Shown piece after piece: positions 1 through 28,750 of a stretch of 32,000 nt of DNA. Below the pieces are notes generated by a model, which was not told the origin of the DNA, did no database searches, and saw only the letters and a list, made by a program, of their open reading frames with translations. How positions within the stretch are numbered: position 1 is the first letter of the stretch; every line of letters starts with the position of its first letter. The position numbers and the translations under genes were made by a program. The stretch comes from an uncultured bacterium (GTDB lineage: Bacteria; Auribacterota; JACPWU01), in NCBI GenBank assembly GCA_964640155.1, contig CAZXEQ010000003.1, forward strand, positions 1 through 32,000, read 5' to 3'.

Positions 1-163
1 AGATGTACCGGTGAGACCAGATGTTCCTTCTGATACTGCAAGAGTGGATGCAGTTACTCCTGATGTTCCTATGGGGGATGTAGTAATTTCTCCAGATGTA
101 CCGGTGAGACCAGATGTTCCTTCTGATACTGCAAGAGTAGATGCGGTTACTCCTGATGTTCCT
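1..163 (+). repeat. In-frame 93-nt (31-aa) tandem repeat at the start of the truncated large ORF; probably continues upstream of the window
   Basis: Bases 1-70 and 94-163 match at 68 of 70 positions by direct comparison (mismatches 46/139 and 52/145). The encoded unit is RPDVPSDTARVDAVTPDVP... and the PDVP motif recurs five times. Confidence 0.85.
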
Positions 164-3130
164 CCAACGACAGAAGAGCCTCTTGCTACAACAGGTGCTG
201 TTTTATTAAGCGGGAGAACTTCAAATGTAGCTGGGATACCTACGTATTTCCCTATATCAACCTATGTAAGTGTTGCAGGAAGAAATGGTGCAACAGCGGT
301 GGTGGATTGGTTGGGAACTGATCGCTATCGTGTAAGAGGACATGTTGATATAAGAAATCCAAATTCCGTCGCTTACATTATAATACGCCCTTCAGAACCT
401 ACGCTGTTGGATGCAACTAGATTACCAAGAGATGAGATGTATTTTTCTTTTGAAGCTACATTAGTCAATGGTTTTGCTGTTGTGATGCAAGATGATTTGA
501 ATAGACGTTATGTTGGCCGTACGAATCCATTTGGTAGTGGACGTTGGGGGTATGGTGTTTATGGAAATAATCCTACAGATGTTCCAGGAAATGGATGGAG
601 AATGGCCAGTCCTCCAGCGACAGGTCGATGGAGACAAATACAGATCCAAATTACTCCTGCCAATGTTAATCCTGTGGGAGCTCCTCCCTTATTTATGCCT
701 GGGGATTTTGTAATTGAGAATATAGCCGGTTTAGTTCATGGGCCCTTTGCAGTAAAGACAGGGAAAGATGGATCTCAGAAGAAAGAAATAGGTTTTGGAG
801 CTGTAGTGAATGGAGTATTTACTCCTTCATCATCCGACTCACCAGCTGCGTCATATGCAGCTGCGATTAATCAAATGATAGAAGATGCTTACCCAGATGC
901 TGAAGCAAGAAGCAAAGTGAATATTTCTAGGCTTTCTGTCTATGATGATTTGGACACAGTGGCGAGAGTTTTAAGCGAGGATAACACCGCCCTTGATTCA
1001 GATTTACTTGCTGAGAATCCTATTAGTAGAAGACCTAAATATTCACCAAGCAGTCGAGCTTTATTCTTTAGGCATGAGCAGACAGAACATAAGAGTGAAA
1101 TCTTACCTATTCTTCGCAGTTTGTCAGACTTTGCAAATATGACATGGGATGAGAAGGTAGCACTGGTACGAGAAATTGGATTAAAAGATGAACTCATGCA
1201 GTTCATATTAAGAACATGGATGTTATCTCGAGACGAACAGATTGCCGCAGTAGTTGAGTTTATGGGAACAGCTAGATCTCGTTTTACAGGCGAACCACTT
1301 TTTGCAGCATCAGAGCAAGAAATGGCCAGAGCTTATAGAGCATCACATACAAATGCTCAGATTTCGGGAGATTTAAAGACCTTGGTAGGAGAACCTAGAG
1401 AAGTAGGGCCTGTAGGAGCCCTTGTTGGAAGAATTGCTGGAAAGATTTCAGGTTTTGCTCAGCCTGTTTATGCTAATGCTTGGACTAAATTGCTTAAATC
1501 TTATATAGCTCAAATATTGGAAGATGTTGCTACCGATAATCGAGCTTTAATACAGGAAATTAATCAAGCGGTAGATGGTATAGGCCGACCTGGTATGACA
1601 TTGAATGGCTTAAATGATTTGATTCAGAGAGTTGTGGAAGTGAGCATTGCCCAAGTTGAAACGACTTCTGGGGCGATCGAAAAAGAAGCAAGAACTCGTT
1701 TGAGTACGGATCGCACAAGAGGACTTTTGGCTATATTCCTACAAATGGCCGATATGCGCAGAGATCGAATTACTTCACCTGTTGCTATTTATAATTTTGT
1801 AGAAGGCTTATCAGAAGAAGCCATGGCAGAGCAAGGAGTAAGAACGCTTGAAAGTATTTTGGATGGACTTCCTCAAGCAAGAGGTGCTGTTACGGTTGAT
1901 AGGGCTTTAGGACAATCTAGAGAGAAGATGGGAGGATTGGCTAATCTTATTAATCTCTTCAATGCTCTTGAAGAACTTCGGGAAGGAAAAGTGACAGAGG
2001 GATTACAGACACTTCAATCTTTGATAGCTCAGGCTGCATCAGATGCTGATTTAGCAAAACTAGCACTTCAAATCCAATCTAAAGTGTTGATGTTAGATGA
2101 ATTTGGAAATATTCAAACAGGTGAAGGTAAATCATCCATCGATACGACTGGAAAATTAAAGTCATTGGTTGAAAGAGTGGGTGTTCGCACCATTAACTTA
2201 GCCTCTGCATGCGTAAGTCCGGCAAAATTTGAAAGATTGCTAGAGGCATTGGGAGAAGATGAGAATATTAAGGCTCTTTCGAAAACAGGAAGTATTGATA
2301 TTGCAGGATTCGAGGATGGGGCTGCATTAAGAGTTACAAAAATAGGAGATGTGTTACAAGTGAGCGTTATCTCGGAATTAGCTAGATACCGTGAGGTTTA
2401 TGATCAACGTCAAGATTCATTAAGAGAAGCTCAACAACAAAGAAGTCAACCTTTTACTCAAATACAAGATCAGGTGACTTTGGGGCTCAACGCAAAGGTT
2501 GTAGATGGACAAATCAAAATCACTGCAGAGGGTGGAGACTTTGTGACTTATTATAGAAATCTGATGAGTGGAGCTGATCCCAATAAGCCTAAAAATACCT
2601 TCTTAATTTCATGGGTTGTAGGAGAAGGAATCAGTGCAGAAGAGCTACAAGCAAAAGAAGAACAAATCTTAAGAGCCATCTTCGGCGCAGCTTATGATGA
2701 ACTTCACCCTTATATTGCAAAAAATGTGAAGGTTGTTGTGAGTGCTAAAAAGGTTACAGGACAAGAACTTATTACAAAAGCCCAAGATCTCTTCTACACG
2801 GGACATACCATTCGTCCAGATACGGATGTTGCATTTATTCTGTCTACCGATGAATTAAGAGCAGGTCATTATGAAGTTGATGTGAATCTCAGAAAAATTC
2901 TTTTGATGGTGGATGAACCACTCAATGCTAAGAGTTTGGCAATGTTGGCCAGAGGTTTGACTAAAGAAGGTTTGATGACTGAAGAGATTCGAAAATTGCT
3001 TGGAGAATTGAAAGATCCAGAGACCTTAGCAGCGTTTAATCAAGGTCAGCATATTCCAAACGCACGAAGCATGATGGAAGACATACAAGCAGGTATGGCA
3101 AGCCGACATGCGGCAGAGAGAATGGCGTAA
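2..3130 (+). CDS. Large hypothetical protein, C-terminal >=1042 aa (5' end outside window)
   Basis: The frame is open from the window edge: codons 2-10 are in frame with the listed ORF 11..3130. Stop is TAA at 3128-3130. The N-terminus has 31-aa repeats, followed by a beta-rich segment (about aa 60-250, ending ...GDFVIENIAG) and then ~800 aa of helix-rich sequence. I recognise no family motif. Confidence 0.75.
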   Translation, partial: DVPVRPDVPSDTARVDAVTPDVPMGDVVISPDVPVRPDVPSDTARVDAVTPDVPPTTEEPLATTGAVLLSGRTSNVAGIPTYFPISTYVSVAGRNGATAVVDWLGTDRYRVRGHVDIRNPNSVAYIIIRPSEPTLLDATRLPRDEMYFSFEATLVNGFAVVMQDDLNRRYVGRTNPFGSGRWGYGVYGNNPTDVPGNGWRMASPPATGRWRQIQIQITPANVNPVGAPPLFMPGDFVIENIAGLVHGPFAVKTGKDGSQKKEIGFGAVVNGVFTPSSSDSPAASYAAAINQMIEDAYPDAEARSKVNISRLSVYDDLDTVARVLSEDNTALDSDLLAENPISRRPKYSPSSRALFFRHEQTEHKSEILPILRSLSDFANMTWDEKVALVREIGLKDELMQFILRTWMLSRDEQIAAVVEFMGTARSRFTGEPLFAASEQEMARAYRASHTNAQISGDLKTLVGEPREVGPVGALVGRIAGKISGFAQPVYANAWTKLLKSYIAQILEDVATDNRALIQEINQAVDGIGRPGMTLNGLNDLIQRVVEVSIAQVETTSGAIEKEARTRLSTDRTRGLLAIFLQMADMRRDRITSPVAIYNFVEGLSEEAMAEQGVRTLESILDGLPQARGAVTVDRALGQSREKMGGLANLINLFNALEELREGKVTEGLQTLQSLIAQAASDADLAKLALQIQSKVLMLDEFGNIQTGEGKSSIDTTGKLKSLVERVGVRTINLASACVSPAKFERLLEALGEDENIKALSKTGSIDIAGFEDGAALRVTKIGDVLQVSVISELARYREVYDQRQDSLREAQQQRSQPFTQIQDQVTLGLNAKVVDGQIKITAEGGDFVTYYRNLMSGADPNKPKNTFLISWVVGEGISAEELQAKEEQILRAIFGAAYDELHPYIAKNVKVVVSAKKVTGQELITKAQDLFYTGHTIRPDTDVAFILSTDELRAGHYEVDVNLRKILLMVDEPLNAKSLAMLARGLTKEGLMTEEIRKLLGELKDPETLAAFNQGQHIPNARSMMEDIQAGMASRHAAERMA

Positions 3131-3281
3131 AAGCGGTATCCCCAAACAGGGACTATCTCCTTCGGAGACTATTTGTAGAAGCTTGTAAAAGCTTGTCTTG
3201 TGCTTTTAAATTGACAGTTTTCTTTTTACGTTTTAGATTAAACCAAAGATTCATCAAATTTAGATCTTATACTTCACTTGG

Positions 3282-5576
3282 GTGTTTGTGAACTTGGTTG
3301 AATTTGTGGCTCCATTAACAAATAAAATTTCCTTTAATCAATTGATAGGGACTCCATTTCTTAAGGAGAAAACCTTTCAAGACTTCACCTTAAGTTCTAC
3401 CTTTCAGAAAGCTAAAAAACTCCACGCGCAGGGCCTTCAAGAAGACCGGTTTGGTTATAAAAGTCGGAAGGCAGGCATTTTTGGCGAATCTTCAAAAAAA
3501 GATGTAAAAGCCATTTCTGATTTTCTTAAGCTAAAAAAATCTCAAGGAGCTCGTGTTTTAATTCATACGGGCATTGGGGGACAGGCTCTTGGAAATAGGG
3601 CTCAGATTGAGCCAGTTGGAGAAGCAGAAGGTTTTCGTGTGTATGTTTTGGAAAAACTGGGCATTGATTTTAAATCTCTTTTTGAAGAAATTGAAGTTCA
3701 AGGATATCAACCCAGCCAAATTCTGATTCATGCTAGCTCCAAGTCGGGTACGACGGATGAAACGATGATTAATTTCCAAGGTGCCTTGAAGTTTCTCATT
3801 CGCGGCTTAGCTTCAGAATGGAAAATGGATTCTCAGATTGCTAAAAGTCTTATTCAAAAATATGAAGGTGTATCAGATTTGTCAAAATCTTCATTGGTCT
3901 CTCTAAATCTTACCTCCGAAGAGAAAAAGCTTTTGCAATTAGCTTTTGATCGAGTGGTGTTCACCACAACAATCAATATCTCTAAGAGTAGAATTTATGC
4001 TCTTGCTAAAAGTAATTTTGTGAAAGAGTTGTCTCAAGAAGTTCATGGGCAATCAAGAGAGCTCACTACTTTTGCTATTCCTGACAATGTGGGAGGACGT
4101 TTTTCTCGTCGATGTCAGTCAGGTTTAATCAGTGCAGGTTTTTCAGGACGGGATATTTCACAGATTCAATCTGGGTCTGAACAGGTGCTTTCCTTTTTTG
4201 AATCTGATGATCCCCAAGTGAATCCTGCTTTGAAGTTGGCCATTGCTATCTATCTTTTAGAGTATGACTTTATTTCATTTTCTGTTCAAAATTCTAGTTT
4301 GATTGCTGTTGCAGATGCTTTTCGTCAACTTTTTCCTGAGAGTAATGGAAAAGACGGACAAGGACCCTTTGTTGTATCTTCCATAGGTCAAAAAGAACTC
4401 AATGATCGAGCTCAAGCGTCTTTTCAAACAATTTTTTTTATCCTTAATATTGAAAAGGATCAAAAAGGCCAATCTATTGTTCCATTAAGTTTGAAAGATG
4501 CTTCAAAGCCTGTATTTATTTATTCTCAGAACAGTCTTTCAGAAGTCGAGGAAGCTCAAAGAGATCTTTTCTTCGACGATTTTACTGTTTGGTATGGGTT
4601 GCTAAAAGCAGCTGAGATTACAGATCATATAAAGTCGCCTGAATATCAAAAAAGAGATCCTCAAAATCAGCCCTTTGTAGAGCATGGTAAAAAATTAATG
4701 GAAAAAGCGGCTGGTGAATTGAATCGATCTGAAGATGCTTTAAATAAGCGTTATCAAAGTGAATGGCAAAAGGTTGAAAAAGGGCCCACTCTTTCTTCAA
4801 TTGCTTCTTTTGAAAATAAAAAACATGTCAACAATCAGAAATTTAAAAATGATTTACAATCTTTAATTGATCAAGAAATAGAACCTTCTTTAAAAAAACT
4901 TAAGCGCAAGAGTTCTTTACGGGGTGATGAATTATTAAAAATATTAGAAGAAATTGAGTCAAAAAAGAAAAACAGACTTAGTCTGAAAACATTTAATGAG
5001 AAGAGAACTTTAGATGATGAGATTGGCAATCTTTTTGGTCAAATTATTTCGATAGGATTTGAGAAACAAACAGATTCTATTGAGAAAGAAGCAAAACAAT
5101 TGGCTGCTTTGATTTTGTATGCTTTGAAGTATAAAAAAATCATTCTTCCCGTTTTTTATAGTGCTGATGTACAAGCAGAAACTTTGGGAGAGTGGTGGAG
5201 AAGAATGACGGGCAGCTTATTGAGCGATTATGGATTAGGAACCAGAGAGCAACATTCCCATTTTCAAAGCCTTTTAGACGGAAAAGATGTTGTTTGGCCG
5301 CTTCTTGTTGATATGGTGAGCCCTTTATCTGAAATCATTCAAAGGGAAGAGCCTGTTTGTGCTTATGGATTAGCCAAAGATTATCTGGATGGTTTATATC
5401 CTGATGAAGTCAGGAGATTGTATTTGGAAGCAGAAGAGAAAACTTTTTTTGAGATTGCTTGTCGCAGTGTGGCTGTTTTAAAAATGAAAGGCCTTTCTTC
5501 GAAAGAAGCAAAGCTTGAGGCCTATCGTTATTTGGGAAGGGCTTTGGTTCTTGTTCAAGCTTGCACAGAAGTTTGA
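3282..5576 (+). CDS. Glucose-6-phosphate isomerase-like (SIS/PGI superfamily) protein, atypically long with rearranged or duplicated catalytic segment
   Basis: PGI hallmarks read in the translation: IHTGIGGQALG (aa 94-104), SKSGTTDET (153-161), VGGRFS (270-275), ESNGK (353-357), NQPFVEHGK (462-470), GTREQHSHFQ (653-662). The start is uncertain: GTG at 3282, with alternatives GTG 3288 and TTG 3294, and no clear SD. Confidence 0.7.
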   Translation: MFVNLVEFVAPLTNKISFNQLIGTPFLKEKTFQDFTLSSTFQKAKKLHAQGLQEDRFGYKSRKAGIFGESSKKDVKAISDFLKLKKSQGARVLIHTGIGGQALGNRAQIEPVGEAEGFRVYVLEKLGIDFKSLFEEIEVQGYQPSQILIHASSKSGTTDETMINFQGALKFLIRGLASEWKMDSQIAKSLIQKYEGVSDLSKSSLVSLNLTSEEKKLLQLAFDRVVFTTTINISKSRIYALAKSNFVKELSQEVHGQSRELTTFAIPDNVGGRFSRRCQSGLISAGFSGRDISQIQSGSEQVLSFFESDDPQVNPALKLAIAIYLLEYDFISFSVQNSSLIAVADAFRQLFPESNGKDGQGPFVVSSIGQKELNDRAQASFQTIFFILNIEKDQKGQSIVPLSLKDASKPVFIYSQNSLSEVEEAQRDLFFDDFTVWYGLLKAAEITDHIKSPEYQKRDPQNQPFVEHGKKLMEKAAGELNRSEDALNKRYQSEWQKVEKGPTLSSIASFENKKHVNNQKFKNDLQSLIDQEIEPSLKKLKRKSSLRGDELLKILEEIESKKKNRLSLKTFNEKRTLDDEIGNLFGQIISIGFEKQTDSIEKEAKQLAALILYALKYKKIILPVFYSADVQAETLGEWWRRMTGSLLSDYGLGTREQHSHFQSLLDGKDVVWPLLVDMVSPLSEIIQREEPVCAYGLAKDYLDGLYPDEVRRLYLEAEEKTFFEIACRSVAVLKMKGLSSKEAKLEAYRYLGRALVLVQACTEV

Positions 5577-11362: not shown

Positions 11363-13324
11363 TTATTTCCCTTTTTCTTCTGATTCAGGGTCAATCGTTT
11401 GAAACCCTGCCTTTGTCAAGGCTGTTTGAACGTTCTTATTTTGCATCATCATTTTCCAAACAAGTCCCGTTCGATAATTTTCAATCATGAGCAACATCAC
11501 CCCTTGATCAATTCCAATATGATCATGAGAAAACCAATTCATTTCTGGGTTAAAAGCACTTACAGGTCCATAGGTGCCCCAAATTTTTTCTCCATAAGTG
11601 AGCATCAAATTTTTAAAACTCTTAATGACAAGTTTGGGTGTGAAAGGTAAAGATGAAATGAGGGCATAAGGGGCTAATGTTCCATCATGTTGATTTTCCA
11701 TCGCTCCATAGGCGCGATAGCCTTTAGGGCCATCTGAAGCAGAAAGACCCCAACCCAAAGGACCATATCCTTTAAAATCAGACGCATGACGTATGCAGAA
11801 CTCTCGATTGGCAAGAATACACTTTTTAGAATTTTCCCAGTAATTTGTATGCGTGTCGTGTTTATTTCTAAAATCGATAAATGCTTGAGAGTAAAGCTGT
11901 GTAAACAGTGAGCGTTGAGGATCACTGATAAACTCAAAAGAACCTTCAACATATTTTTCTCTACGCCATTCATTCCAGGCGCTTGAGGCAACGGGATGAG
12001 TTGGAGAGCCTATGGCTAAAAGGTATAAAATCATTTGTTCTGCAGCCATATTCCAGACCAGTGATTTATCAAACCCTTGTTCTGGCTTCCAGGACATGTA
12101 CAAAAGCCCTTTTTCATTCGCACTCATCCAGTTCCACTCTACATTTTCATAAAGTTGATAAGCAAGGTGGCTGATATCAGAGTTTGGAAAATATTGGGCA
12201 ACAAAAAGAACTCCCGCCATCAGAAGTGCTGTATCAATGGATGAAACTTCACTATCCGCCCAGCGTTTTCCAGTTCTGGCATCTAAAAAGTGATAGAAAT
12301 AGCCATGTTCCTGATCTGCCTTTTGAAGTGTTTTTAATATGTCAGATACTTTTTTTTGCACTTCTACACGACTTAACCAACCACGTTTTTCTGCTATACA
12401 ATAGGCGATTAGGCCAAAGCCTGTTGCTGCAATGCTAGAGGGGCTACCTGGGGTGTTGCGATCTTTAATTAAACCCGTTTGGGAAGAGTATTGCTCAATA
12501 AAGTACTGAAAGATTTTATTTTGAAGGAAATCCAGAAGCAAATCGTTATTTCCTTCTAATAAATGAAGTAATTGATTATACGTTTCAACTTTAGCTTTGC
12601 GTTGTATTTGGTCATATTGTTTTTGAGATCCAATGAGTGCGAAATGGTCAAAATAGAGAGAGCCCACCTTAGCGTCAGCGATCTGGCTTTCAAAAACAAT
12701 GGTTAATTCCTCAACAGGAGAGATATTATTAGAATTAGAAAAATTTTTTAAAGGGATTGAAATTTCTTGCCAGCTGTCTCTAACCCCGATGACATAATAA
12801 ACTCTATTTCCGTGAGCTGTTTTTAACTCAATCTTAAAACGACGTGTAAAACCTGTTGTTGCGTCACCTCGAACACGAAAGTAAAGAAATTCAAAGGGTT
12901 TTAAGTCAATACCATTGAGTCTTGTCCAATAGCCATTATATGCAACCTGTTTGGATTCTACATCATAGGTGAGCCTTAATACTTTATTTTTATCTTTTTC
13001 TGAATGAGAATCATAAACAATTGCTTCAACACATGTTTCTTGGGGATCTAAAGGATCTTTCTCCCAAGCTCCAGAATTCCCACCTAAGTGATTCAAAATT
13101 GAGTTTTCGTCAAAGTTATCAATAAGAAAGATTAATTTATCATCCTTAACATTTGTAGTAGGAGAAAGAGAAGTAGCTGCTTGAGGTAGCCTTGGAATTG
13201 AAGGCTTCTTGATAGGGGCTTGACTTGAATCAACCTGAACTTCCAAATCTGCTCTTATTTGTACGCTAATAGGATTCAATAAGTAACAGACTAAAAATAT
13301 AACTGAAGCATAAATAGTTTTCAT
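11363..13324 (-). CDS. Secreted CBM-like module + PF10091/GH144-like glucanase-like protein
   Basis: Signal-like N-terminus MKTIYASVIFLVCYLL. Aa ~62-232 carry the shared module (TYDVESKQVAYNGYWTRL...GSLYFDHFAL). The catalytic-like part has PSSIAATGFGL, GYFYHFLDARTG, SSIDTALLMAG and GIDQGVMLLMIENYRTG. RBS aaggag upstream. Confidence 0.8.
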   Translation of the reverse strand: MKTIYASVIFLVCYLLNPISVQIRADLEVQVDSSQAPIKKPSIPRLPQAATSLSPTTNVKDDKLIFLIDNFDENSILNHLGGNSGAWEKDPLDPQETCVEAIVYDSHSEKDKNKVLRLTYDVESKQVAYNGYWTRLNGIDLKPFEFLYFRVRGDATTGFTRRFKIELKTAHGNRVYYVIGVRDSWQEISIPLKNFSNSNNISPVEELTIVFESQIADAKVGSLYFDHFALIGSQKQYDQIQRKAKVETYNQLLHLLEGNNDLLLDFLQNKIFQYFIEQYSSQTGLIKDRNTPGSPSSIAATGFGLIAYCIAEKRGWLSRVEVQKKVSDILKTLQKADQEHGYFYHFLDARTGKRWADSEVSSIDTALLMAGVLFVAQYFPNSDISHLAYQLYENVEWNWMSANEKGLLYMSWKPEQGFDKSLVWNMAAEQMILYLLAIGSPTHPVASSAWNEWRREKYVEGSFEFISDPQRSLFTQLYSQAFIDFRNKHDTHTNYWENSKKCILANREFCIRHASDFKGYGPLGWGLSASDGPKGYRAYGAMENQHDGTLAPYALISSLPFTPKLVIKSFKNLMLTYGEKIWGTYGPVSAFNPEMNWFSHDHIGIDQGVMLLMIENYRTGLVWKMMMQNKNVQTALTKAGFQTIDPESEEKGK

Positions 13325-13365
13325 GGGTGAAAAGCTCCTTTCTTAGGAAGCTTCCTCGTTCACCC
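13325..13365 (-). promoter_or_regulatory. 5'-UTR hairpin that pairs the SD and abuts the start codon of the 11363..13324 gene
   Basis: Minus-strand RNA reads gggtgaa-cgaggaagcttcctaagaaaggagctt-ttcaccc-AUG. The outer 7-bp stem is gggtgaa/ttcaccc. In the inner stem, aagcttcc pairs with ggagctt, which contains the SD. Confidence 0.3.
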
Positions 13366-13772
13366 AGTATCTTATTGCTAAAAATAATCATAAAAGTGCA
13401 TTTATGAACATTTTAATAAAAAATGGTTACTTGTTTAGGAAGGAATCATTTCTTATTTTGCCTACTTACCGAAGTCCCATGGATTTGCATCTGTGGAATA
13501 CCTCTGTAGCGGGATCATAAATTTTATTCTAGATCATCTTAAAGAGCAGCAAGATATAGAATATATTGTGCACAAAATTAAGATATTTGTCAATATTCTT
13601 TTAAAGTTAAAGGGTTAAAGGTAAAATAAAACAAATCTTTAAAAATACTTAAATAAAAAGTTTTATATCTCTATATTTCGTACATTTTTTAAATTATTTA
13701 TTTTTTGAACAAGTTTGTTGTTTTTTTTTATTTTTATTTTAAATAAATATATTTCTTTAAAAGGAGATAAAA

Positions 13773-15728
13773 ATGAAAAAAGTAGTTATTTTTTTTGTTT
13801 TAGGATTTTTTTGTAGTTTTTCAGGTATTTTTTCCTCTCAGGCTTCAGTTTTATCTCAAGAAGATCAAGTTTATCTAAAAAAAATCATGCAAGAAACTTG
13901 GGCATGTATTTCTGATCTTGTAGATGAGAAAAGTGGTATCCCTTTTGATAGTAGTGCAAAGCCAAATTACACCTCTATGAGTAATATTGGATTTTATCTG
14001 GCAAGTATTTTTGGAGCACAAGAAGCAGGATTGATTAATCAGAAGGAAGCAGAGGTTCAAATTAAAAAAGTTTTAGATTTTTTAGATCGTCTTGAAAAAT
14101 GGCGTGGTTTTCCCCCAAGTTGGTTGCAAGTTTATCAACCTATCAGTTTAGAAAAGATTATTTCTCCTGTGGATTCTGCAAATTTAGTAGCAGGCCTTCT
14201 CGTTATTCGACAAGGTTATCCTATTTTTAAGGATCAAATTACAAAACTAATCAATGCCATGGATTGGAAGGCTTTCTATGACAATAAGGCTAATTCTCTA
14301 AAAGGTGGATATAATCTTAGGAAAAAGAGAGAGCTCTCATTTCAATATAAAGATTTAGGAACTGAGCTTAGAATGGCATTTTTTCTGACAATTGCGACAA
14401 AAGCAGCTCCTTTAAAATTATGGACTGAATTGGACAAAATTCTTGAAGAACGTTATGACATTCAATATTTAGGGCCTGGCTGGAAAAATGGGGGACTTTT
14501 CCTTCAAGGAATGACAGGGTTATTTTTGGATGAAAGAGGAACCATGATGGGTAAATCTTTTGTGAATATGGCCTATGCTCAAATTTTACATGCAAAGCAA
14601 AAAAAATATCCTTTTTGGGGTTGGTCCGCTTGTTCTACTCCAGATGGAGGTTATTTAGGTGCTGGGAAGGTTATGGATCAAGTCGTAACTCCACATGCGT
14701 CAGTCTTGGCTATTTCCTATTACCCTCAACAAGTTGTTAAAAATCTCAAACAATTAGATCTCTATAAAATACGTAAGCCTTTTTATTCCAATCATGGACC
14801 TAAAAATTATGGATTTCGTGATGCCATTGATTTGAAATCAAAAAAAGTGACGGAACGTTATTTAATGATTGATCAGACCATGATTTTTTTGAGTTTAGTC
14901 AATTTTTTACACGAAGGAGTGATTTATAAGACATTTTCAAGAGATCCTATTGTGAAACAAGGTTTGGATCTTATTTCCGACTATAAAAACTCTTTTTTGC
15001 GTGAAGTCGAAGAAATTTGTCAAAAGAGAGACAAAGGATTAGAAGAAAAAATTCCTTTGGAGTTAGATTTATCAAATCCTATCATTAAACCTTTTGTAGA
15101 GTCTGTATATGTTGAAACAGTTGCAAAGCATGTAAAGCAGAAAGTAATGATCGATGGACATTTGTCCGAATGGTCTGAGGCAAAAGCAGAGACTTTTCCA
15201 TTAAGTAGAACTTTAGAATCAGGACTTGTTCAAAACACTCAAGATTTAGATGCAAAAGCCTATTTCTTATGGGATGAAAAATATCTTTTTTTTGCCATTG
15301 AGGTTATGGATGATGAAATAATAAATGATGAAGAGGCGAAGAATCTTTTTAAAGGAGATTGTATTGAGCTTTTTATTGATCCAGATAATGATGTTTTAAA
15401 ATGGGGAAGTCTACAAGATTTTCAAATAGGTTTTTCGGCTCCTACAAAAAATCAAACTGCTAAGATTTGGGCATGGTTTCAATCACGAGCTCCTAAGTCA
15501 AACGAAATTCAATTTGGTGTAAGTTCGTTTGATGAAGCACGGAGAAAGGGTTATCGTGTTGAAGCTGCTATTGCTTGGAAGTTCTTGAAAGTTGAACCTA
15601 AGGCAGGCCGGATTTTAGGCATTTCTCCAGCGGTGCATGATATAGATTTAGATCAATCAGCCGAGACAAAACTAAATTGGTGCTATTTATCTGAAGGGAA
15701 GTTAGGTGGATTGAAACTAGAACAGTAA
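13773..15728 (+). CDS. Secreted DUF3131-type glucanase-like protein with C-terminal CBM9-like domain
   Basis: RBS aaggag lies 7 nt upstream. Signal peptide MKKVVIFFVLGFFCSFSGIFSSQA. Motifs YTSMSNIGFYLAS, GWSACSTPDGGY, YGFRDAIDL and LMIDQTMIFLSLVNFL are paralogous to 6469..8484. The C-terminal ~190 aa (IDGHLSEWSEA...YFLWDEKYLFFAIEVMDDE...GDCIELFIDPDND...GYRVEAAIAW) resemble CBM9. Confidence 0.8.
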   Translation: MKKVVIFFVLGFFCSFSGIFSSQASVLSQEDQVYLKKIMQETWACISDLVDEKSGIPFDSSAKPNYTSMSNIGFYLASIFGAQEAGLINQKEAEVQIKKVLDFLDRLEKWRGFPPSWLQVYQPISLEKIISPVDSANLVAGLLVIRQGYPIFKDQITKLINAMDWKAFYDNKANSLKGGYNLRKKRELSFQYKDLGTELRMAFFLTIATKAAPLKLWTELDKILEERYDIQYLGPGWKNGGLFLQGMTGLFLDERGTMMGKSFVNMAYAQILHAKQKKYPFWGWSACSTPDGGYLGAGKVMDQVVTPHASVLAISYYPQQVVKNLKQLDLYKIRKPFYSNHGPKNYGFRDAIDLKSKKVTERYLMIDQTMIFLSLVNFLHEGVIYKTFSRDPIVKQGLDLISDYKNSFLREVEEICQKRDKGLEEKIPLELDLSNPIIKPFVESVYVETVAKHVKQKVMIDGHLSEWSEAKAETFPLSRTLESGLVQNTQDLDAKAYFLWDEKYLFFAIEVMDDEIINDEEAKNLFKGDCIELFIDPDNDVLKWGSLQDFQIGFSAPTKNQTAKIWAWFQSRAPKSNEIQFGVSSFDEARRKGYRVEAAIAWKFLKVEPKAGRILGISPAVHDIDLDQSAETKLNWCYLSEGKLGGLKLEQ

Positions 15729-16147: not shown

Positions 16148-19100
16148 TTAGATGTCTCCCGTCAAGCGGATGAAGAACTTATGAGCATTGTCTTCTGCGC
16201 CTGTTCTAAGATCATCTGAGAAGTCTGTGAAGTTATATCCTGCTCCTAAACGAATATGATCGATCACTTGTCGATCCACTTCGACCAAAAATCCTGATTT
16301 GCGATCGCCTGTTTCAGTTTCTTTTAAGATTCGATATTCCCCGGCAAGATCCCATTTCTTCGTGATGTGGAAGTTGATACGGTTAATCCAAAGATGATTC
16401 TTAACTTCGATAAAATCACTGTCTAGGACGCTGACTTCACCAAATTTAAACGCATATTTTTCTACCAACTGGAACCAACGATTAATGTCGTAAGCTCCTT
16501 CAATAGAGGCAAGATGTGATCTTTCCAAAATATTCAGACCAAAATCAGACTGAGCTTCAGGATCATCATCACTTAAATAAGAATATTTACCAATAAAATT
16601 AAGTCTGTCTGCATAGACGGGACGGTAGGCAAAGCCGGTACCAGCTTCATAGAAGCAAGCTGCATCAATATCTGATGAGCGATTTTCTGTGAGTCCATAA
16701 TTAACTCTACCTAACCATTGTAAGTCTTCTGTTAGTTGCCACTTGATTAAGTTTTGAGTCAAATATTGACGCAAGGTGACATCCGAAAAGCCTTCGTCTT
16801 GGCGGAATTCAAACTTTGTGGAGGCGTTTAACCAATTCCATTTGGAGTAGGAGAGTGTACCTGAAACAGCGTCTCTACTTAAATCATCATCACTATCAAT
16901 ACGTTCATATGTAGATCCAAAAGACCATCCTTTTTGGAGACGTGTTTCATAACCAAAGAGGCTAGATTCTAACTGGCCTTTTCTGTAGTTTGTATACTGT
17001 TTTTCGGTGGTGAAATTGCTTCTTTCATCAATGTCAGTTCGTGTTCCAAATGTGGTTCGAGAAGCTCTTCCTAATGAATGATCCGTGCCCATCATTTGAT
17101 TGATATACATACGTGTTTTCTCACTGGTTTGCGCTTGAACACCTACCAAAGTTGAATTCCCACGTGTTCCAACCGTTTCTTGTCCTTGTAGCCAAATCTT
17201 TTCTGTGACTTTGACATCTGCTCCAACAGAGGTTTGATGATTATCTGGACCGGCAACAGTCACTTGTTGAGCAATAAAGGGGATAAATCTTCCACTCCAA
17301 TGATAACGAGCTTTTGCAGCAAGCGTGTCAGAAGACTCGTTAGTGAATTGGAAAAAGCCCGAAAGAGGATCATCAAAGGTTAAAGGATCTTCAATTTCAC
17401 GATGTTGATATTCGCCAGTCAATTCCCATTTTCCAATGTCATGGGTTAATTGGGCTGAAGTAGTGTGACTTCTGCTTCCATCAACCAATGAAGAGGAAAG
17501 GGGATTGGGTCCACCAATGGTAGTAGGGGAATAAAGACCCACAGAACGTATAGGATCATTTAATAATTTTTGAGTGTCATGACGAACATTTAAGAAAGTA
17601 GTGGCAGCTAGCTTCAGACTTGCTTCCACACCCATTTTTTGTGTGCCTTCTTCGAGGAGAGAAGAGGTGTTGGAAAATCCTGGAGCAATATATGTGTAAT
17701 AAGCTTTGGTTTTTAGGCGATCAGAAAAAGCTGTTTGTGCTTTTAAGCTGTAGGCCTGTTCATAATCCAGATTTGTGTTGAGATAATCTTGAGGGCTAAT
17801 GGCTTTATATTCATCCAAAGTTACATTGATGCTTCGGGTGTTCCCCTGAATGGTTCTAAAATAGGTGGGATCCGAAGCGTTAAAAGAAATACCCCCATCT
17901 TGTGAATAGCGTGTTCCAGATTGATCCCCTCGAGATTGAGCATATTCTGCAATGAATTTTGTCCATTTGCCAAGTTTCATCAAGATATCTCCACCGAGCA
18001 TCTTGTAATCAGGTCCTTGCCGATCTTCTTGAACAAATGTTCCACCGACACGCACATTGTCTAGGACTTGCTGATAGCCTCGAACAGCACGTGTAGGATT
18101 CTCAAATGGGGAAGAGGATAAATGCTCATAATCCACAACAAGAGAAGATGTATTTCCAGGTAAAATATTAGACGAAACAATACTATTAGAACCTGTTACA
18201 GAGGAGAGGGGTTTAGTAAGAATAATTCTTCCACTTCTGTAGTCCATTTCATAGTCAAGTCCTTCCGTCAAATCGATACGTGATGAAACACGCCCTGTTA
18301 CTCGGTCCCGTGTAACGACTTGCACTTTTTCACTTCCTTCTACGACTTGGTTGTATTTTAGATAATAAAGAGAACCACCAGTTCCTAAGAATTCGTCATG
18401 ACCTGCATTAGTTCCATCTTCAGCATAAAAACCTGTAATTCCTCCATAAGGATCACCGTAGGTATTGGTTTTTTCTCTTTGGGCATGAAGTTTTGCTCCG
18501 GATAAAGTTCTATTGTAAGTTGCAAGATCAAGATCAGTTAATCCGGTTTCAAAGCTACCCCATTGAAAATAGGATTTATCCATTTCAAGGAGCAAGAAAA
18601 GATTATTTCGTGTGTCCGTGGCTCTATAATCAATCACCGAACCATCCCCATAAACAGGATAATAACGATCAGGATCCAAATTAGTAAAAAATTTGGTGTT
18701 ATTCGAGCGGGATGTATCCAAAGAAGACGTGATTAAATAACGTCCCTTCACTTTTGCCTTCAAATAATAGGCAATACGCCCATTTTCATAAAAACCATCA
18801 TCAAATTCATCTTCATCTGAAACAGATTCAAGATGAGACGTAACATCTTTTCCGCCTAATTCACCTTCTGCCATACCCACCATGAAGAAATAATTATCTT
18901 GAACATCTAGCTCTCGAACATAAGTAATCGTTTTTCCCTTGGCATCAGTGTTGCTAATTTTTACAACCTGAACTCCTGGGGGAAGAAGGACTTCTTTTTC
19001 AAAAGTTCCATCTTCATGAACATAGGTGTCTTGGCCATTAATTTTAATCGTAGTCCCTGCTTCTGCATGACCTCGAACCATCACGCTGTTTTTATTTGTT

Positions 19101-21655
19101 ACAGGGATAGATTGATGGGGACGTTCGTTATCGTCTAATTGCACAAAAGAAGAACGTTCCACAACTGAAGCGATTTTCTTTTTATGAGTTGGGCGAAGAG
19201 TTTTAGTTACAGTCCAATCTTCATGCGTACCATCTGTTACAAAAAGTTGATAATAATACTCTTTCCCAGCTTCAATGGATGTTCCTTCATCCGTTTTTCC
19301 ATCCCATGAGGTGCGAGAGGGGACAGTAGGCCCCCCTTCTAAGGTTTTAATGGTTTTACCTTTATGATCACGAATTTCAATTTTCCATCCGGTAACCGTA
19401 TCCAAGTAGTTTCCATCCATATAGAAATACAAGGGTTCAAGCCATTTGTCTGAAAGGATTTGAGGTTCATTATTGCTGGCTTGCACATCGAGTTTAGGTG
19501 TGAATTTGTCATATTGCTGCGTGACATGAACTTCAATTTTGTCTTTATAGGCTTCTGGAATTGAAGTATCTGCAGGAACGCTCACAGCAAAATTGGCTTT
19601 GGATAAAATACCTTCAGTTGTTCTGACTAAAAAGGATTCTTCAGTCACAAAAGTTGATCCTGGTGGGAGGCTATGACGATCCACTTTGATTAAATGACGG
19701 CCTGGTTTGACGCCGGGGACATGATAGCGACCATAACGATCAGTATAAACAACGGTTCCTTCTTCCGTCGCTAAACGCACATCAGGAATTCCAAGTTCAC
19801 CTTTATCTTGTTTCCCATTTTTATTTTGATCATTAAATACTTTACCAATAATAGTGCCCAAATCAAAAGTGGGATCACCCAGCACAATGGTTTGTGTTGT
19901 GGACGTATTAGACAATTGAATGTTTAAATTTGAACTACGTGCAACAGCAGGGGAAATATATCTTCTTCCAAGCTCACTTCGTGTTCCTGTTTGAGTAACA
20001 TAGCTAATGGTGACTTCTTCTGAGCCTTGAATGGTTCCTAAATTAAAAGTAAGAGGAGAGTTTCTGGTTGGATCTGTGATTCTCTCACCGTTTCTTTGAG
20101 CTGTTCCATTACGATATTCAAAAGCTTCAGGAAGTTCATCGATTAAAAGTACATTATTGATGGCAAAGGTTGAATTATTTTTAAGATGTAGTTTATAGAC
20201 TAGTAAATCTCCTCGTGAAGCCTGCTTTTTATTTACATCCTTTCTCAAGACAAGGGGATAGCCAGGATCCATAGGAAGAGAGATTTTGGTATCAACCACA
20301 GCGCTAAAAAGCTCTCCATGATCACCCCCAACGACAGCATCATTGATTCGAGAAGGGAAGGTATAGCCTTCAGCAATGGCTCTTAAAGAACGAGAGGATC
20401 CATTTGGAACAATGAATTGAAAGGGGTTATCGGAATCTGTTGCAATCACACGCCCTGAAGCATCTAATAATTCAACGCGTGTTCCTGGAATCAATTGACC
20501 ATTGGTTGAACTGAAAACATCTCCTGTGATTTTTACAGGACCATTATCAAAAGTGGCACAAGCACGATCAAAAACAATATCCCCACCCCCTCCAGCGCCG
20601 GCATCTCCTAAAATGACAAGTACCGCAAAAGCTGTACCCGCAGGCGCTTTTCCAGAAACAGAAAATTGTTTGTATTCACCAAAGGCATTTGCGCTTGTAA
20701 TTTCATCGGAAAGAACTTCTTCGAGCAAATGATCATTAGCATCTTTAAATTCGATTTTAAGTTGGCCAAAAGCTCCTCCAGCCATATTGTCTGTTCGCGC
20801 ATAAATGCTGAAATCTATTTCAGCATCAGGAAGAACACCCCCAATGATTTGAAAAATTCCTGTAAACATGCCTCCAAAAATACCCATTTGAATGGCTCGG
20901 CTTCCATCCAGAGCTGAATGAGCCAATGTGGCGTTATCCCGTTGAGTCACTAGAGCAGATCCCAAAGGAAAACGTGTCCAACCTGGAAGAATTTCTTCTC
21001 CACTGGCTCCTGTTCTTTCAAAGCTAGAGTTGCTTGGAAAGTTGCAACTGGAAGCCGAAACACCGCTGGATATAATTGCAGAAACATCATCAACGAAATA
21101 TTCTGAAGATGAAGCTCCATTCATAGAATGAACAATGGTAAAGCGAATACTTGTGGTTCCAGTAGGAACTGTTCCTGAGATGGTGCTTGCAGAATAAGTG
21201 GATGACGTAGCAATGTTAGTGGAGCTTTCGACGGGTGCACTTGCGCTTCCTATAAATTCTATTTTGAGATGAAGGAAAGACAAAGTGTCTACACCTGTTT
21301 TTTTTGCATATGCTTGAAAGACGACAGTATCTCCAACGGAAAAGCCACTTGTTACATCTTGAAAAGCTCCAGAAAATAAAACTCCAGGACCTCCGAAGGA
21401 AGCTAGTTTTAAATAACCAGATCCAGTTCTGGCACTTCCATTTCCAAATGCAACATTCCACCATTCCGCAGCAGCTGTTGTAACCCCTGCTGTTCCGAAT
21501 TCTGTCCAGCTATCTGCGTTAAAAGTAGGCATTCCTGATTCAAAGCCCTTGTTGTCCAGAACTTCAGCAGCCTGGGCGGGAGTACTAAAAAAAATAAGTC
21601 CAAGTAAAAAGAGGGAGAGTTTCAGAGAATGTGTGTATGAAAGAGTCTTCTTCAA
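16148..21655 (-). CDS. Giant (1835 aa) outer-membrane-type protein: 2 CBM4_9-like modules + adhesin-type Ig-like repeats + large C-terminal beta-barrel-like region
   Basis: TTG start with gagg 6 nt upstream. Signal peptide ...FFSTPAQA/AE. Two CBM-like modules (NKGFESG...YFVDDVSA and NSSFERTG...GDIVFDRA). A DUF11-type repeat (GDLLVYKLHLKNNSTFAINNVLLIDELPEAFEY). An SdrD-B-like repeat (GKVFNDQNKNGKQDKGELGIPDVRL...GRYHVPGVKPG). A FlgD-Ig-like segment (WDGKTDEG...YYYQLFV). The last ~900 aa show alternating amphipathic strand patterns up to ...GAGYNFTDFSDDL. Confidence 0.85.
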   Translation of the reverse strand: MKKTLSYTHSLKLSLFLLGLIFFSTPAQAAEVLDNKGFESGMPTFNADSWTEFGTAGVTTAAAEWWNVAFGNGSARTGSGYLKLASFGGPGVLFSGAFQDVTSGFSVGDTVVFQAYAKKTGVDTLSFLHLKIEFIGSASAPVESSTNIATSSTYSASTISGTVPTGTTSIRFTIVHSMNGASSSEYFVDDVSAIISSGVSASSCNFPSNSSFERTGASGEEILPGWTRFPLGSALVTQRDNATLAHSALDGSRAIQMGIFGGMFTGIFQIIGGVLPDAEIDFSIYARTDNMAGGAFGQLKIEFKDANDHLLEEVLSDEITSANAFGEYKQFSVSGKAPAGTAFAVLVILGDAGAGGGGDIVFDRACATFDNGPVKITGDVFSSTNGQLIPGTRVELLDASGRVIATDSDNPFQFIVPNGSSRSLRAIAEGYTFPSRINDAVVGGDHGELFSAVVDTKISLPMDPGYPLVLRKDVNKKQASRGDLLVYKLHLKNNSTFAINNVLLIDELPEAFEYRNGTAQRNGERITDPTRNSPLTFNLGTIQGSEEVTISYVTQTGTRSELGRRYISPAVARSSNLNIQLSNTSTTQTIVLGDPTFDLGTIIGKVFNDQNKNGKQDKGELGIPDVRLATEEGTVVYTDRYGRYHVPGVKPGRHLIKVDRHSLPPGSTFVTEESFLVRTTEGILSKANFAVSVPADTSIPEAYKDKIEVHVTQQYDKFTPKLDVQASNNEPQILSDKWLEPLYFYMDGNYLDTVTGWKIEIRDHKGKTIKTLEGGPTVPSRTSWDGKTDEGTSIEAGKEYYYQLFVTDGTHEDWTVTKTLRPTHKKKIASVVERSSFVQLDDNERPHQSIPVTNKNSVMVRGHAEAGTTIKINGQDTYVHEDGTFEKEVLLPPGVQVVKISNTDAKGKTITYVRELDVQDNYFFMVGMAEGELGGKDVTSHLESVSDEDEFDDGFYENGRIAYYLKAKVKGRYLITSSLDTSRSNNTKFFTNLDPDRYYPVYGDGSVIDYRATDTRNNLFLLLEMDKSYFQWGSFETGLTDLDLATYNRTLSGAKLHAQREKTNTYGDPYGGITGFYAEDGTNAGHDEFLGTGGSLYYLKYNQVVEGSEKVQVVTRDRVTGRVSSRIDLTEGLDYEMDYRSGRIILTKPLSSVTGSNSIVSSNILPGNTSSLVVDYEHLSSSPFENPTRAVRGYQQVLDNVRVGGTFVQEDRQGPDYKMLGGDILMKLGKWTKFIAEYAQSRGDQSGTRYSQDGGISFNASDPTYFRTIQGNTRSINVTLDEYKAISPQDYLNTNLDYEQAYSLKAQTAFSDRLKTKAYYTYIAPGFSNTSSLLEEGTQKMGVEASLKLAATTFLNVRHDTQKLLNDPIRSVGLYSPTTIGGPNPLSSSLVDGSRSHTTSAQLTHDIGKWELTGEYQHREIEDPLTFDDPLSGFFQFTNESSDTLAAKARYHWSGRFIPFIAQQVTVAGPDNHQTSVGADVKVTEKIWLQGQETVGTRGNSTLVGVQAQTSEKTRMYINQMMGTDHSLGRASRTTFGTRTDIDERSNFTTEKQYTNYRKGQLESSLFGYETRLQKGWSFGSTYERIDSDDDLSRDAVSGTLSYSKWNWLNASTKFEFRQDEGFSDVTLRQYLTQNLIKWQLTEDLQWLGRVNYGLTENRSSDIDAACFYEAGTGFAYRPVYADRLNFIGKYSYLSDDDPEAQSDFGLNILERSHLASIEGAYDINRWFQLVEKYAFKFGEVSVLDSDFIEVKNHLWINRINFHITKKWDLAGEYRILKETETGDRKSGFLVEVDRQVIDHIRLGAGYNFTDFSDDLRTGAEDNAHKFFIRLTGDI

Positions 21656-26867: not shown

Positions 26868-28085
26868 TTATAAAGAAATTGTTTCTCCTTCATTTTCAAG
26901 ACTGAGCATAAGCAAAATATAATCTCTTAAATGTCGTGTGATGAGAAAATTTTGACGAACATGTTCTTTTCCGTTTTTACCAAGTTTTTCTGCAAAACTA
27001 GGATTTTGTAAAATTTGTTTGGTGTAATAAGCTGTTCCTTCAATGGTATGGGAAAGTAAGCCCGTATATCCATGTGATATTTGTAAGGTAATACCTCCTA
27101 CAGCGGAAGCCACAACAGGCTTTGATTTCCATAGAGCTTCTGCAACAGTCAGTCCAAAGCCTTCTCTTAAAGATTTCTGAAGAACCACTTGAGAAGCCCG
27201 TTGTAATGCATTAATTTCAATGTCGGAAGAGGGAGGTAGAAATAAAACATGAATATCGGGATCATTTTTTGCTTCTTCTTCAACCATTTCTAAGATTTTT
27301 GCTCCTTCAGGATCATCTGTAGCTCCTCCTCCCGCAAGAATCAATTGGCAATCAATGGCTTTTTTCACCAATCGATAAACTTTGATGACTCCGAGAGGAT
27401 CTTTTTGATAATCGAAGCGTGAGATTTGACTCATAATAGGTTTATTAGTTTCGATTTTTAATTTTTTGAGTACATCACTGATAATTTCAGGAGATAAATC
27501 TTTATTTTTATCACTGAGAGGATCGATAGAAGGACTGATGAGTACTTGCCGTATAGGAAGGGGTTTTGAAAAGGAGGGTGCAGAGAAAATAACAGCATCA
27601 TAATGTTTAATGTATCCTTCCAAATAAGTCCAAAGGAGGGGATCTGAAGAAGCAGAATCAATATGGCATCGCCATACCCATTTTTTGCCAATGCGAGATT
27701 TTTTTTCAATAAGTCCAATGGGTTGGGGATCATGAATAAAAAAATGGTCACTTGAAAGATCCATCTCAAGTAAATTTTGGCGGTTTACTTCTTCAAAATG
27801 ATCGAGTTCGTCTCGACTTAACTCATCTTTTCTTCCATGAAGCATGTTGTGAATTTTCTTTGTAACGGAAAAGAATTTTTCGCCTCCTTTAATTACATCC
27901 CATTTAGCATTAATGCCCACTTCGCCGAAGAGGGGAATCATGCGATTTAATATTTCAGCAACTCCACCTCCGACAGCTGTAGAATTAACATGTTGCATGT
28001 TGCGACCTTTTAAGCGACTGGCCAAAAAGCGGATTTCATCCACAGTGGATTTTCCAATAAAAGGAATATATTGATCTAGAATCAT
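26868..28085 (-). CDS. treT: GT4 glycosyltransferase, trehalose glycosyltransferring synthase (TreT)-like
   Basis: HVNSTAVGGGVAEIL, WVWRCHID, SPSIDPLSDKN, SRFDYQKDP, ATDDPEG, SLREGFGLTVAEALWKSKPVVASAVGGI and NFLITRHLRDY match my recollection of archaeal/bacterial TreT proteins along the whole length. Confidence 0.7.
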   Translation of the reverse strand: MILDQYIPFIGKSTVDEIRFLASRLKGRNMQHVNSTAVGGGVAEILNRMIPLFGEVGINAKWDVIKGGEKFFSVTKKIHNMLHGRKDELSRDELDHFEEVNRQNLLEMDLSSDHFFIHDPQPIGLIEKKSRIGKKWVWRCHIDSASSDPLLWTYLEGYIKHYDAVIFSAPSFSKPLPIRQVLISPSIDPLSDKNKDLSPEIISDVLKKLKIETNKPIMSQISRFDYQKDPLGVIKVYRLVKKAIDCQLILAGGGATDDPEGAKILEMVEEEAKNDPDIHVLFLPPSSDIEINALQRASQVVLQKSLREGFGLTVAEALWKSKPVVASAVGGITLQISHGYTGLLSHTIEGTAYYTKQILQNPSFAEKLGKNGKEHVRQNFLITRHLRDYILLMLSLENEGETISL

Positions 28086-28750
28086 AACTGCATCCTTCCT
28101 TTAATAAGCGAGCAAATATAACTACGTAATTCTTCTAAGGTGTAGGTGTAAGGATCTAAACGAGAAATTTTTGAAGCAAGCTCCTTTTCTTCCAGAGAGG
28201 TCCGCAGCCATGAAGAAAAGTCATTGTCATTTTTTCCTAGTCTTAATTTAGAGTCAAACATATGAAAATAAATGGAATGGACAGTAACTTCTTTTAAGAT
28301 TTGATAAAACTCTTCTAAATTATGGGCCTCATAGGGGAGAGAAAGAATAATATGAATAGACTTCAGAAAATAGAGTTCTTGACCACTCGATGCAAATCTT
28401 GTGAGCACTTCTGGATTTGAATTTACATGCTCCTCAAGGGTGTGAATGAGTTCTTTTCTTAATTCTTCAATATGGGCAAATTGAAGAATATCAATTGAAA
28501 AAAGTTTTTCGCCTAAGACACGATCTGCTAAGACATTTCGAGCCCAATACCCAAAATCATTTGAAGGTTCTGGAGAAAGATATTGATGTTGTTGAAGAAA
28601 ATGGTGGGTATGATAGTAAACAGAAGATTCTGGAACTTCTTTTAAGTTGGTAATTAATTCAGGTATATTTTTAGCTTTTCGGCCTAAACTTTCAGTTAGG
28701 TAAAGACATGTCGAAAATTTAAAAGGAGTAGAGGCAGCGCTTTTACTCAT
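28082..28750 (-). CDS. Hypothetical 222-aa protein with internal duplication, translationally coupled to the treT-like gene
   Basis: ATGA start/stop overlap with the downstream gene (28082-28085). The two halves align: FKFS..L...A.NIPELITNLKEVPESSVYYHTHHF...NDFGYWARNVL versus LYFL..L...AHNLEEFYQILKEVTVHSIYFHMFDS...NDFSSWLRTSL. RBS aaggagat upstream. Confidence 0.7.
   Translation of the reverse strand: MSKSAASTPFKFSTCLYLTESLGRKAKNIPELITNLKEVPESSVYYHTHHFLQQHQYLSPEPSNDFGYWARNVLADRVLGEKLFSIDILQFAHIEELRKELIHTLEEHVNSNPEVLTRFASSGQELYFLKSIHIILSLPYEAHNLEEFYQILKEVTVHSIYFHMFDSKLRLGKNDNDFSSWLRTSLEEKELASKISRLDPYTYTLEELRSYICSLIKGRMQL

Follow-up and report, generated by a model that had tools for sequence, protein, structure and literature searches.

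The rearranged PGI-like gene

The window analysed here, meaning the whole stretch of DNA, comprises 32,000 nucleotides (positions 1 to 32,000 of contig CAZXEQ010000003.1, assembly GCA_964640155.1) from an uncultured bacterium of the Auribacterota. It contains, on the forward strand, an open reading frame (ORF) whose predicted product resembles phosphoglucose isomerase (PGI, or glucose-6-phosphate isomerase) with the catalytic motifs in the order Glu, Lys, His along the chain, some 290 residues following the Lys motif. An earlier note, made by a model from the letters alone, had drawn attention to this order, and the ORF and all the motif coordinates that it gave were exact. The protein can be divided into an N-terminal region, a PGI-like body, a linker and a C-terminal module (Table 1); body, linker and module together are referred to below as the cassette. 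The start codon is GTG, and the database copy of the protein (P0001) begins two codons downstream of the ORF start in the window. In full, the phosphate-binding motif reads SKSGTTDET (aa 153-161).

Table 1. Coordinates in the window of the PGI-like gene, its parts and the genes that follow it
Feature	Position	Strand	Remarks
Whole gene, rearranged PGI-like protein (body, linker and module)	3282..5576	+	764 aa
N-terminal region, aa 1-85	3282..3536	+	DRFGYKS...GIFG motif, conserved in family
PGI-like body, aa ~86-475	3537..4706	+	HMMER, hhalign, Foldseek; two SIS subdomains with all own-subunit active-site residues (predicted)
SKSGTT phosphate-binding motif, aa 153-158	3738..3755	+	S153, K154, T158 invariant
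GGRFS, aa 271-275	4092..4106	+	R273 invariant
ESNGK, aa 353-357, catalytic Glu353 by homology	4338..4352	+	Q349, E353, K357 invariant
Asn374 codon in canonical catalytic-His column	4401..4403	+	Column never His in 27 family members
NQPFVEHGK, aa 462-470, catalytic Lys470 by homology	4665..4691	+	Q463, V466, K470 invariant
Linker, aa 476-597	4707..5072	+	Mostly helical, poorly conserved, without PGI homology
C-terminal module, aa ~598-764	5073..5573	+	Partial second copy (PGI profile columns ~256-416); His and hook, without Glu/Lys
TGSLL, aa 643-647, where ES.GK would stand			Ser645 in Glu column
EQHS, aa 656-659, His658	5247..5258	+	Q657, H658 invariant in 26 diverse modules; on catalytic His of solved PGIs
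Hook-equivalent segment, aa 680-726 (YGLAKDYLDGLYPDEVRRLYLEAE)	5319..5459	+	Aligns on PGI hook
CBM11-like secreted-protein gene	5719-6303	+	
GH144-type (PF10091) beta-1,2-glucanase homologues, four	6469-8484; 8488-11346; 11363-13324; 13773-15728	+; +; -; +	5gzh_A match, E 7e-61

In an ordinary PGI the phosphate-binding Ser/Thr residues and the Arg, Gln, Glu and Lys of the active site all come from one subunit. The ring-opening His is donated by the dimer partner, as the earlier note had said, and residues 306-348, which lie 21-63 positions beyond the His, form a hook that packs against the partner (PMC8354745). In catalysis the Glu serves as the proton-transfer base and the His as the ring opener (PMC9436075).

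Upstream of the gene a sigma-70-like sequence, TTGACA-17-TAGATT, is found at 3211..3239 on the forward strand, 43 nucleotides 5' of the GTG start; overall counts of promoter-like and terminator-like sequences were not above those in shuffled sequence. A weak hairpin followed by a T-run lies at 3156-3168, 3' of the upstream ORF.

The body is PGI-like but lacks the His and most of the hook

Scores of the protein against curated PGI models were low. The Pfam PGI model matched only aa 91-191, scoring 24 bits where the cut-off is 22, and the NCBIfam PGI equivalog models gave up to 74 bits against cut-offs of 350-712 (443 for the best one). Searched with phmmer against the sequences in the PDB, the protein matched PGIs only, over aa ~88-374, and the alignments ended with KELN of the query on TDLH of the PGIs. 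When aa 300-475 of the body were compared by hhalign with the canonical PGI profile, which consisted of 115 hits from a word-indexed search, they aligned with profile positions 245-438 at 99.2% probability. Three independent alignments (phmmer against the PDB PGIs, hmmsearch with the canonical profile, and hhalign) placed Asn374 in the column of the catalytic His, and aa 358-392 contain no His at all; the absence of a canonical His from the first copy, which the earlier note had claimed for aa 360-390 from an alignment made by hand, is thus borne out. The hhalign comparison also showed that ~28 hook columns, located after the His helix and before the last strand, are missing from the body, and that the module retains exactly these columns.

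The protein has the two-SIS fold, the phosphate motif, the Arg of GGR, the Glu motif and the Lys motif of PGIs, and it does not have a His ~20-30 residues after the Glu in the same large domain. Judged by its sequence, it belongs to the PGI superfamily and departs from the canonical enzymes in one defining feature, the position of the His.

The C-terminal module repeats part of the PGI large domain

With the unfiltered canonical PGI profile, each of five close family members gave a fourth, weak match, in which aa ~600-712 aligned with profile positions ~250-365, a range that had already been matched once by aa ~320-380 of the same chain. These initial HMMER scores were 3-8 bits. Profile comparisons gave much higher values. 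A family profile of the C-terminal 190 aa aligned collinearly with canonical PGIs over 112 columns with a score of 38.4; 60 column shuffles scored 15.5 +/- 2.4 (maximum 21.8) and the reversed alignment scored 14.9. A module profile from the extended family matched positions 256-416 of the PGI profile over 152 columns (hhalign probability 97%, E 1.1e-10; shuffles 15.7 +/- 2.8). In two family members the canonical PGI HMM recognised the module directly, with 38.5 bits (1e-12) for aa 843-1006 of P0142 on profile positions 248-410 and 27.8 bits (2e-9) for P0139. Finally, the best PDB matches of a profile of 26 diverse modules were all PGIs (3ff1 aa 238-390, E 6e-4; 1b0z aa 232-382), and in that alignment H658 fell on the catalytic His and YGL.kdYL.GLYPDEV fell on the hook sequence DGL--NYLAGKTIDEV. 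The terminal Lys helix is absent from the module. Comparison of the close-family module profile with the family's own body gave no signal.

The second copy that had been proposed at aa ~619-680 is therefore real by profile comparison, and larger than had been thought, extending over aa ~598-762. Of the C-terminal 270 aa, for which the earlier note required some PGI homology, the last ~165 aa showed it, and the linker of ~120 aa showed none against the PGI profile. The stretch between the two copies is mostly helical by prediction, as the earlier note had it, and is rich in Lys, Leu, Glu and Ser; it is 122 aa long rather than ~150. Across the family the length of the linker varies from 37 to 175 aa.

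Body and module retain complementary parts of the PGI active site

The division of motifs between the two copies held throughout the family. All 27 bodies examined retained SKSGxTDE, GGR and Q..ES.GK, plus QP.VE..K where that region aligned, and none had a His in the His column. Conversely, all 31 complete modules retained QH, and ES.GK was present in none of them. The proposal that the first copy kept the Glu and lost the His while the second did the reverse is thus upheld, in a stronger form than originally put, because the hook is split in the same way.

In an alignment of 18 cassettes, with identities down to 23%, the invariant residues of the body were G97, G99, G100, S153, K154, G156, T158, D159, E160, G272, R273, Q349, E353, S354, G356, K357, G439, Q463, V466 and K470, and those of the module were Y626, Q657, H658, Q662, G667 and G696. 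By homology, this set is essentially the PGI active site, divided between body and module. The alignments indicate that the body has lost precisely the two elements that a PGI directs at its partner, namely the His and most of the hook, and that precisely these are retained by the module.

Conservation differed along the chain. Identity with close and distant members was 62% and 34% for the body, 60% and 37% for the module, and 30% and 20% for the linker; the helix around His658 was the most conserved stretch of the protein (91% and 56%). The ratio of nonsynonymous to synonymous substitution rates (dN/dS), relative to P0002, was 0.06 for the body, 0.08 for the module and 0.27 for the linker; for the His helix it was not computable, since dS was saturated. 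The module is under purifying selection.

Predicted structure

AlphaFold2, supplied with the alignment of 18 cassettes, produced a model with a mean predicted local distance difference test score (pLDDT) of 92.1 and a predicted TM-score (pTM) of 0.92, in which the linker, the module and the coil of the hook were all confident; the model made with only five close homologues had a pLDDT of 52 and was unusable. The secondary structure of the module, helix-strand-helix-(His helix)-strand-hook-helix-strand-helix, parallels that of aa 315-443 of the body. In a Foldseek search the top 50 matches were all PGIs, with target-normalised TM-scores of 0.71-0.76 for those of the short bacterial type (2q8n, 3ifs, 1zzg, 1c7r). 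As the pTM of 0.92 applies to the whole chain, the model predicts that the module packs on the body in a defined way. The proposed delivery of H658 in cis to the pocket of E353 and K470 fits this compact and confident single-chain model.

Distribution of the family and its fusions

A word-indexed search yielded four full-length relatives, 69-37% identical, from groundwater 'Chlamydiae' metagenome-assembled genomes (MAGs) and Aureabacteria. We also carried out an exhaustive HMMER search of 1.84 billion representative sequences with the module alone, which gave 35 matches, two of them spurious, and in every complete match the body, linker and module were present in one chain. The ~30 relatives come from Auribacterota, groundwater 'Chlamydiae' MAGs and Omnitrophota; a genome scan located it in Candidatus Auribacterota, in Omnitrophota and in a few MAGs labelled as PVC (Planctomycetes, Verrucomicrobia and Chlamydiae), and one Auribacterota locus was 85% identical to the module encoded in the window. 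Two apparent stand-alone modules, P0125 and P0133, were ruled out as natural split genes, being assembly fragments: one lies on a contig of 742 bp, the other on a contig of low coverage whose ORFs form a frameshifted chain. P0146 and P0152 were likewise ruled out as members, being spurious tandem-repeat proteins; P0146, of 487 aa, has near-perfect 51-aa tandem repeats and matched the module profile in nine stretches. One MAG, CAYOMI01, has two separate module-encoding loci (L009 and L013) and thus paralogues within a single genome.

Many of the cassettes are internal parts of Candidatus Omnitrophota proteins of 1,300-6,218 aa. Nine cassette proteins contain domains of the phosphoglucomutase/phosphomannomutase (PGM/PMM) type, which precede the cassette in seven of them and follow it in two. 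Because the cassette is thus fused, in both orders, with an enzyme of an adjacent step, it may well be a genuine sugar-phosphate isomerase. Combinations that bring in additional domains are with a GH130 phosphorylase, CBM30 and PGM (P0127), with PTS-HPr (P0123), with a Polysacc_synt_2/epimerase domain (P0124), with PGM and a response-regulator receiver (P0126), and, in some further fusions, with sugar-nucleotide epimerase/dehydratase domains; P0130 is called GalE by its source. P0123, P0124, P0126, P0127 and P0130 look like multi-enzyme sugar-metabolism megaproteins of Omnitrophota. The neighbours of the gene in the window (the upstream 1039-aa ORF, the GH144-like genes and a TreT gene) had no matches as fusion partners in the giant proteins.

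The shortest linkers in the family (37 and 61 aa) belong to P0142 and P0139, which also have the most PGI-like body and module. By sequence these two are candidate early-branching intermediates for the way in which the rearrangement arose.

Family members are labelled 'hypothetical protein' in their sources. A literature search for a single-chain or pseudo-dimeric PGI, or for a PGM-PGI fusion, found nothing relevant. The cassette family is rare and unannotated, and we found no earlier description of its architecture in the literature.

Genomic neighbourhood

In the window and in the three closest relatives the PGI-like gene is followed by the CBM11-like gene and then by three or four GH144-type homologues, some of which carry CBM30 or CBM9 domains. 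This cluster 3' of the PGI-like gene is conserved in loci L001-L004 and L006.

Upstream, at 11..3130 (+), lies an ORF of 1039 aa without a Pfam or PDB match, which contains a 42-nucleotide tandem repeat (x3.2) at nucleotides 20-163 encoding the repeated 'RPDVPSDTARVDAVTPDVP'. The homologue P0004 (L003/L004) also has upstream of it a protein without a Pfam match and of exactly 1039 aa, with a small TPR gene between the two. Within the GH144-type cluster, the divergent intergenic region at 13324..13773 shows a dip in GC content to 0.29. Farther downstream are a surface-type protein of 1835 aa, carrying SdrD_B, DUF11, Glucodextran_B and FlgD-Ig-like domains (16148..21655, -), and, at 26868..28750 (-), a TreT-type trehalose synthase of family GT4 followed by a DUF5752 protein. 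Trehalose synthesis has been reported for Auribacterota MAGs (PMC9324843), with which the TreT gene in the window is consistent.

A model for the cassette, and alternatives to it

We propose that the product of the gene is an active isomerase of the PGI type whose ring-opening His comes from a partial copy of the large domain, this copy taking the place of the dimer partner; to this reading we assign a probability of roughly 0.6. According to this model the body (aa ~86-475) would supply all the active-site residues that an ordinary subunit provides for itself; the module (aa ~598-764), tethered by the variable helical linker, would dock on the body as a partner subunit does; and the docked module would place H658 in the active site, giving one active site per chain. 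The product would be an aldose-ketose isomerase of the cytosol and a member of the PGI superfamily, most likely converting glucose-6-phosphate to fructose-6-phosphate, and possibly acting on mannose-6-phosphate also or instead. That H658 reaches the site of E353 and K470, that it does so in cis rather than from a partner chain, and what the substrate and activity are, we infer from the evidence above.

Several observations weigh against this proposal, or at least do not help it. The scores of the protein lie far under the curated PGI cut-offs, and its specificity could accordingly differ from that of the enzymes on which those models are based. The extended-family module resembles its own body only marginally, with a score of 18.9 against a shuffle maximum of 18.4. 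The module may be an internal duplicate, or a piece of a second PGI gene may have been fused to the first; it is clearly like canonical PGIs and only marginally like its own body, so that the two origins are not separable and internal duplication is not proven. The linkage to beta-1,2-glucanase genes is confined to close relatives, the more distant P0005 having different neighbours, and is weak as functional evidence.

Two further explanations were considered. Apart from the initial support of only 3-8 bits for the second copy, nothing was found in favour of an artefact, be it a chimeric assembly, two genes fused by a frameshift or a C-terminus that resembles PGIs by chance. Any such artefact is now exceedingly improbable, since more than 25 independent assemblies, drawn from several phyla, have the same uninterrupted architecture, a finding that also settles the concern of the earlier note about a chimeric or frameshifted gene, and since the shuffle and reversal controls were negative and the module is under purifying selection. 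The earlier note had also offered a non-isomerase SIS paralogue as an alternative, and one can imagine a sensor or regulator derived from PGI that binds sugar phosphates without catalysis, its module serving a purely structural or regulatory role. The absence of the His from its canonical place, the weak Pfam match and the receiver or PTS-HPr domains in some giant fusions would agree with such a protein; but a mere binder would not be expected to keep E353, K470, R273, Q349 and the Q657/H658 pair invariant down to 23% identity, and the fusion partners are mostly enzymes of adjacent metabolic steps. We consider a non-catalytic role very unlikely.

The other two alternatives accept an active isomerase and differ from our proposal in the route of the His or in the substrate. 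The module could act in trans, the protein dimerising or swapping domains such that H658 of chain B enters the body of chain A, with two sites per dimer. Canonical PGIs are after all dimers whose His is supplied in trans, a linker that is long, flexible and variable in length (37-175 aa) could permit swapping, and swapped elements tend to be folded back in cis when AlphaFold is run on a monomer, so that the pTM of 0.92 is compatible with this arrangement too. On the other hand, the hook, by which canonical dimers are stabilised, is mostly gone from the body, the cassette often lies inside chains of 2,000-6,000 aa, where symmetric dimerisation of an internal unit is less straightforward, and the single-chain model is confident throughout; we regard delivery in trans as unlikely, while taking it seriously. 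Alternatively, the main substrate might differ from that of a housekeeping PGI and be mannose-6-phosphate, which would make the enzyme a phosphomannose isomerase (PMI) or a bifunctional PGI/PMI, or some further sugar phosphate. The great divergence from the PGI equivalog models, the fusions to PGM/PMM-type mutases able to act on mannose phosphates, the GH130 domain of mannoside-phosphorylase type in P0127 and the fusions with sugar-nucleotide epimerase/dehydratase domains all point in that direction. Against it stand the invariance of all the residues of the glucose/fructose-6-phosphate site of PGIs, the neighbours in the window, which are glucan-degrading and not mannan-degrading enzymes, and the PGI-shaped gap left by the presence of an annotated PGI in only 67 of 176 complete Omnitrophota genomes. 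A different main substrate therefore seems rather improbable.

Implications

If the proposed single-chain mechanism holds, the cassette would be a clean natural case of an inter-subunit active site becoming a single-chain one, by a route of partial duplication followed by complementary degeneration that changed the order of the catalytic motifs, and it would be of interest both for enzyme evolution and for the engineering of monomeric PGIs. We suggest further, though with odds that we would put a little short of even, that an obligate-dimer glycolytic enzyme has here become a self-sufficient single chain with its His in cis, that independence from dimerisation made the unit 'fusion-ready', which would explain its presence next to PGM/PMM in the giant proteins of Omnitrophota, and that the cassette is the 'missing' PGI of many Omnitrophota (109 of the 176 complete genomes) and Auribacterota genomes without an annotated one. 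The figures for Omnitrophota, a glucose-6-phosphate isomerase annotated in 67 of 176 complete genomes, and the recurrence of PGM/PMM in giant sugar-metabolism proteins are taken from a preprint (10.64898/2026.06.07.730766). Because its scores are far below the cut-offs of the PGI models, the cassette would escape annotation as a PGI, and metabolic reconstructions of Auribacterota and Omnitrophota may wrongly show a gap at the step that links glucose-6-phosphate with fructose-6-phosphate. Our proposal would also assign a function to a recurrent block of ~750 aa in the giant Omnitrophota proteins, and its fusion with PGM/PMM suggests channelling of glucose-1-phosphate (or mannose-1-phosphate) to fructose-6-phosphate.

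Comparison with known systems

The conventional short bacterial PGIs (PF00342; Thermotoga maritima 2Q8N, Geobacillus 1B0Z/2PGI, Thermus 1ZZG and Bdellovibrio 7NSS) share with the cassette the fold of two SIS subdomains and the same succession of phosphate-binding, Arg, Gln, Glu and Lys motifs, and their His helix and hook are recognisable in it by sequence. In contrast to those enzymes, the cassette carries the His and the hook outside the body, ~280 residues downstream, on an additional copy of part of the large domain; it is ~750 aa long as against ~410-450 aa, and it is probably independent of homodimerisation. The bifunctional transaldolase/PGI and other PGI fusions (NCBIfam NF007080) likewise have a PGI unit inside a larger multi-enzyme chain of the same pathway; in them, however, that unit is canonical and dimeric with its His in place, whereas here the unit itself is rearranged. 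The archaeal/bacterial PGI/PMI family consists of PGI-superfamily proteins that are divergent and have a broadened specificity, and is for that reason relevant to the possibility of another substrate; its members differ from the cassette in being short (~300 aa) and dimeric and in having the canonical motif order.

The closest known precedent in concept is the monomeric dUTPase of herpesviruses, unrelated in fold and chemistry, in which gene duplication converted inter-subunit sites to a single chain with complementary motif loss, an altered order of motifs and one site per chain. There the duplication took in the whole domain; here it is confined to roughly one third of the protein.

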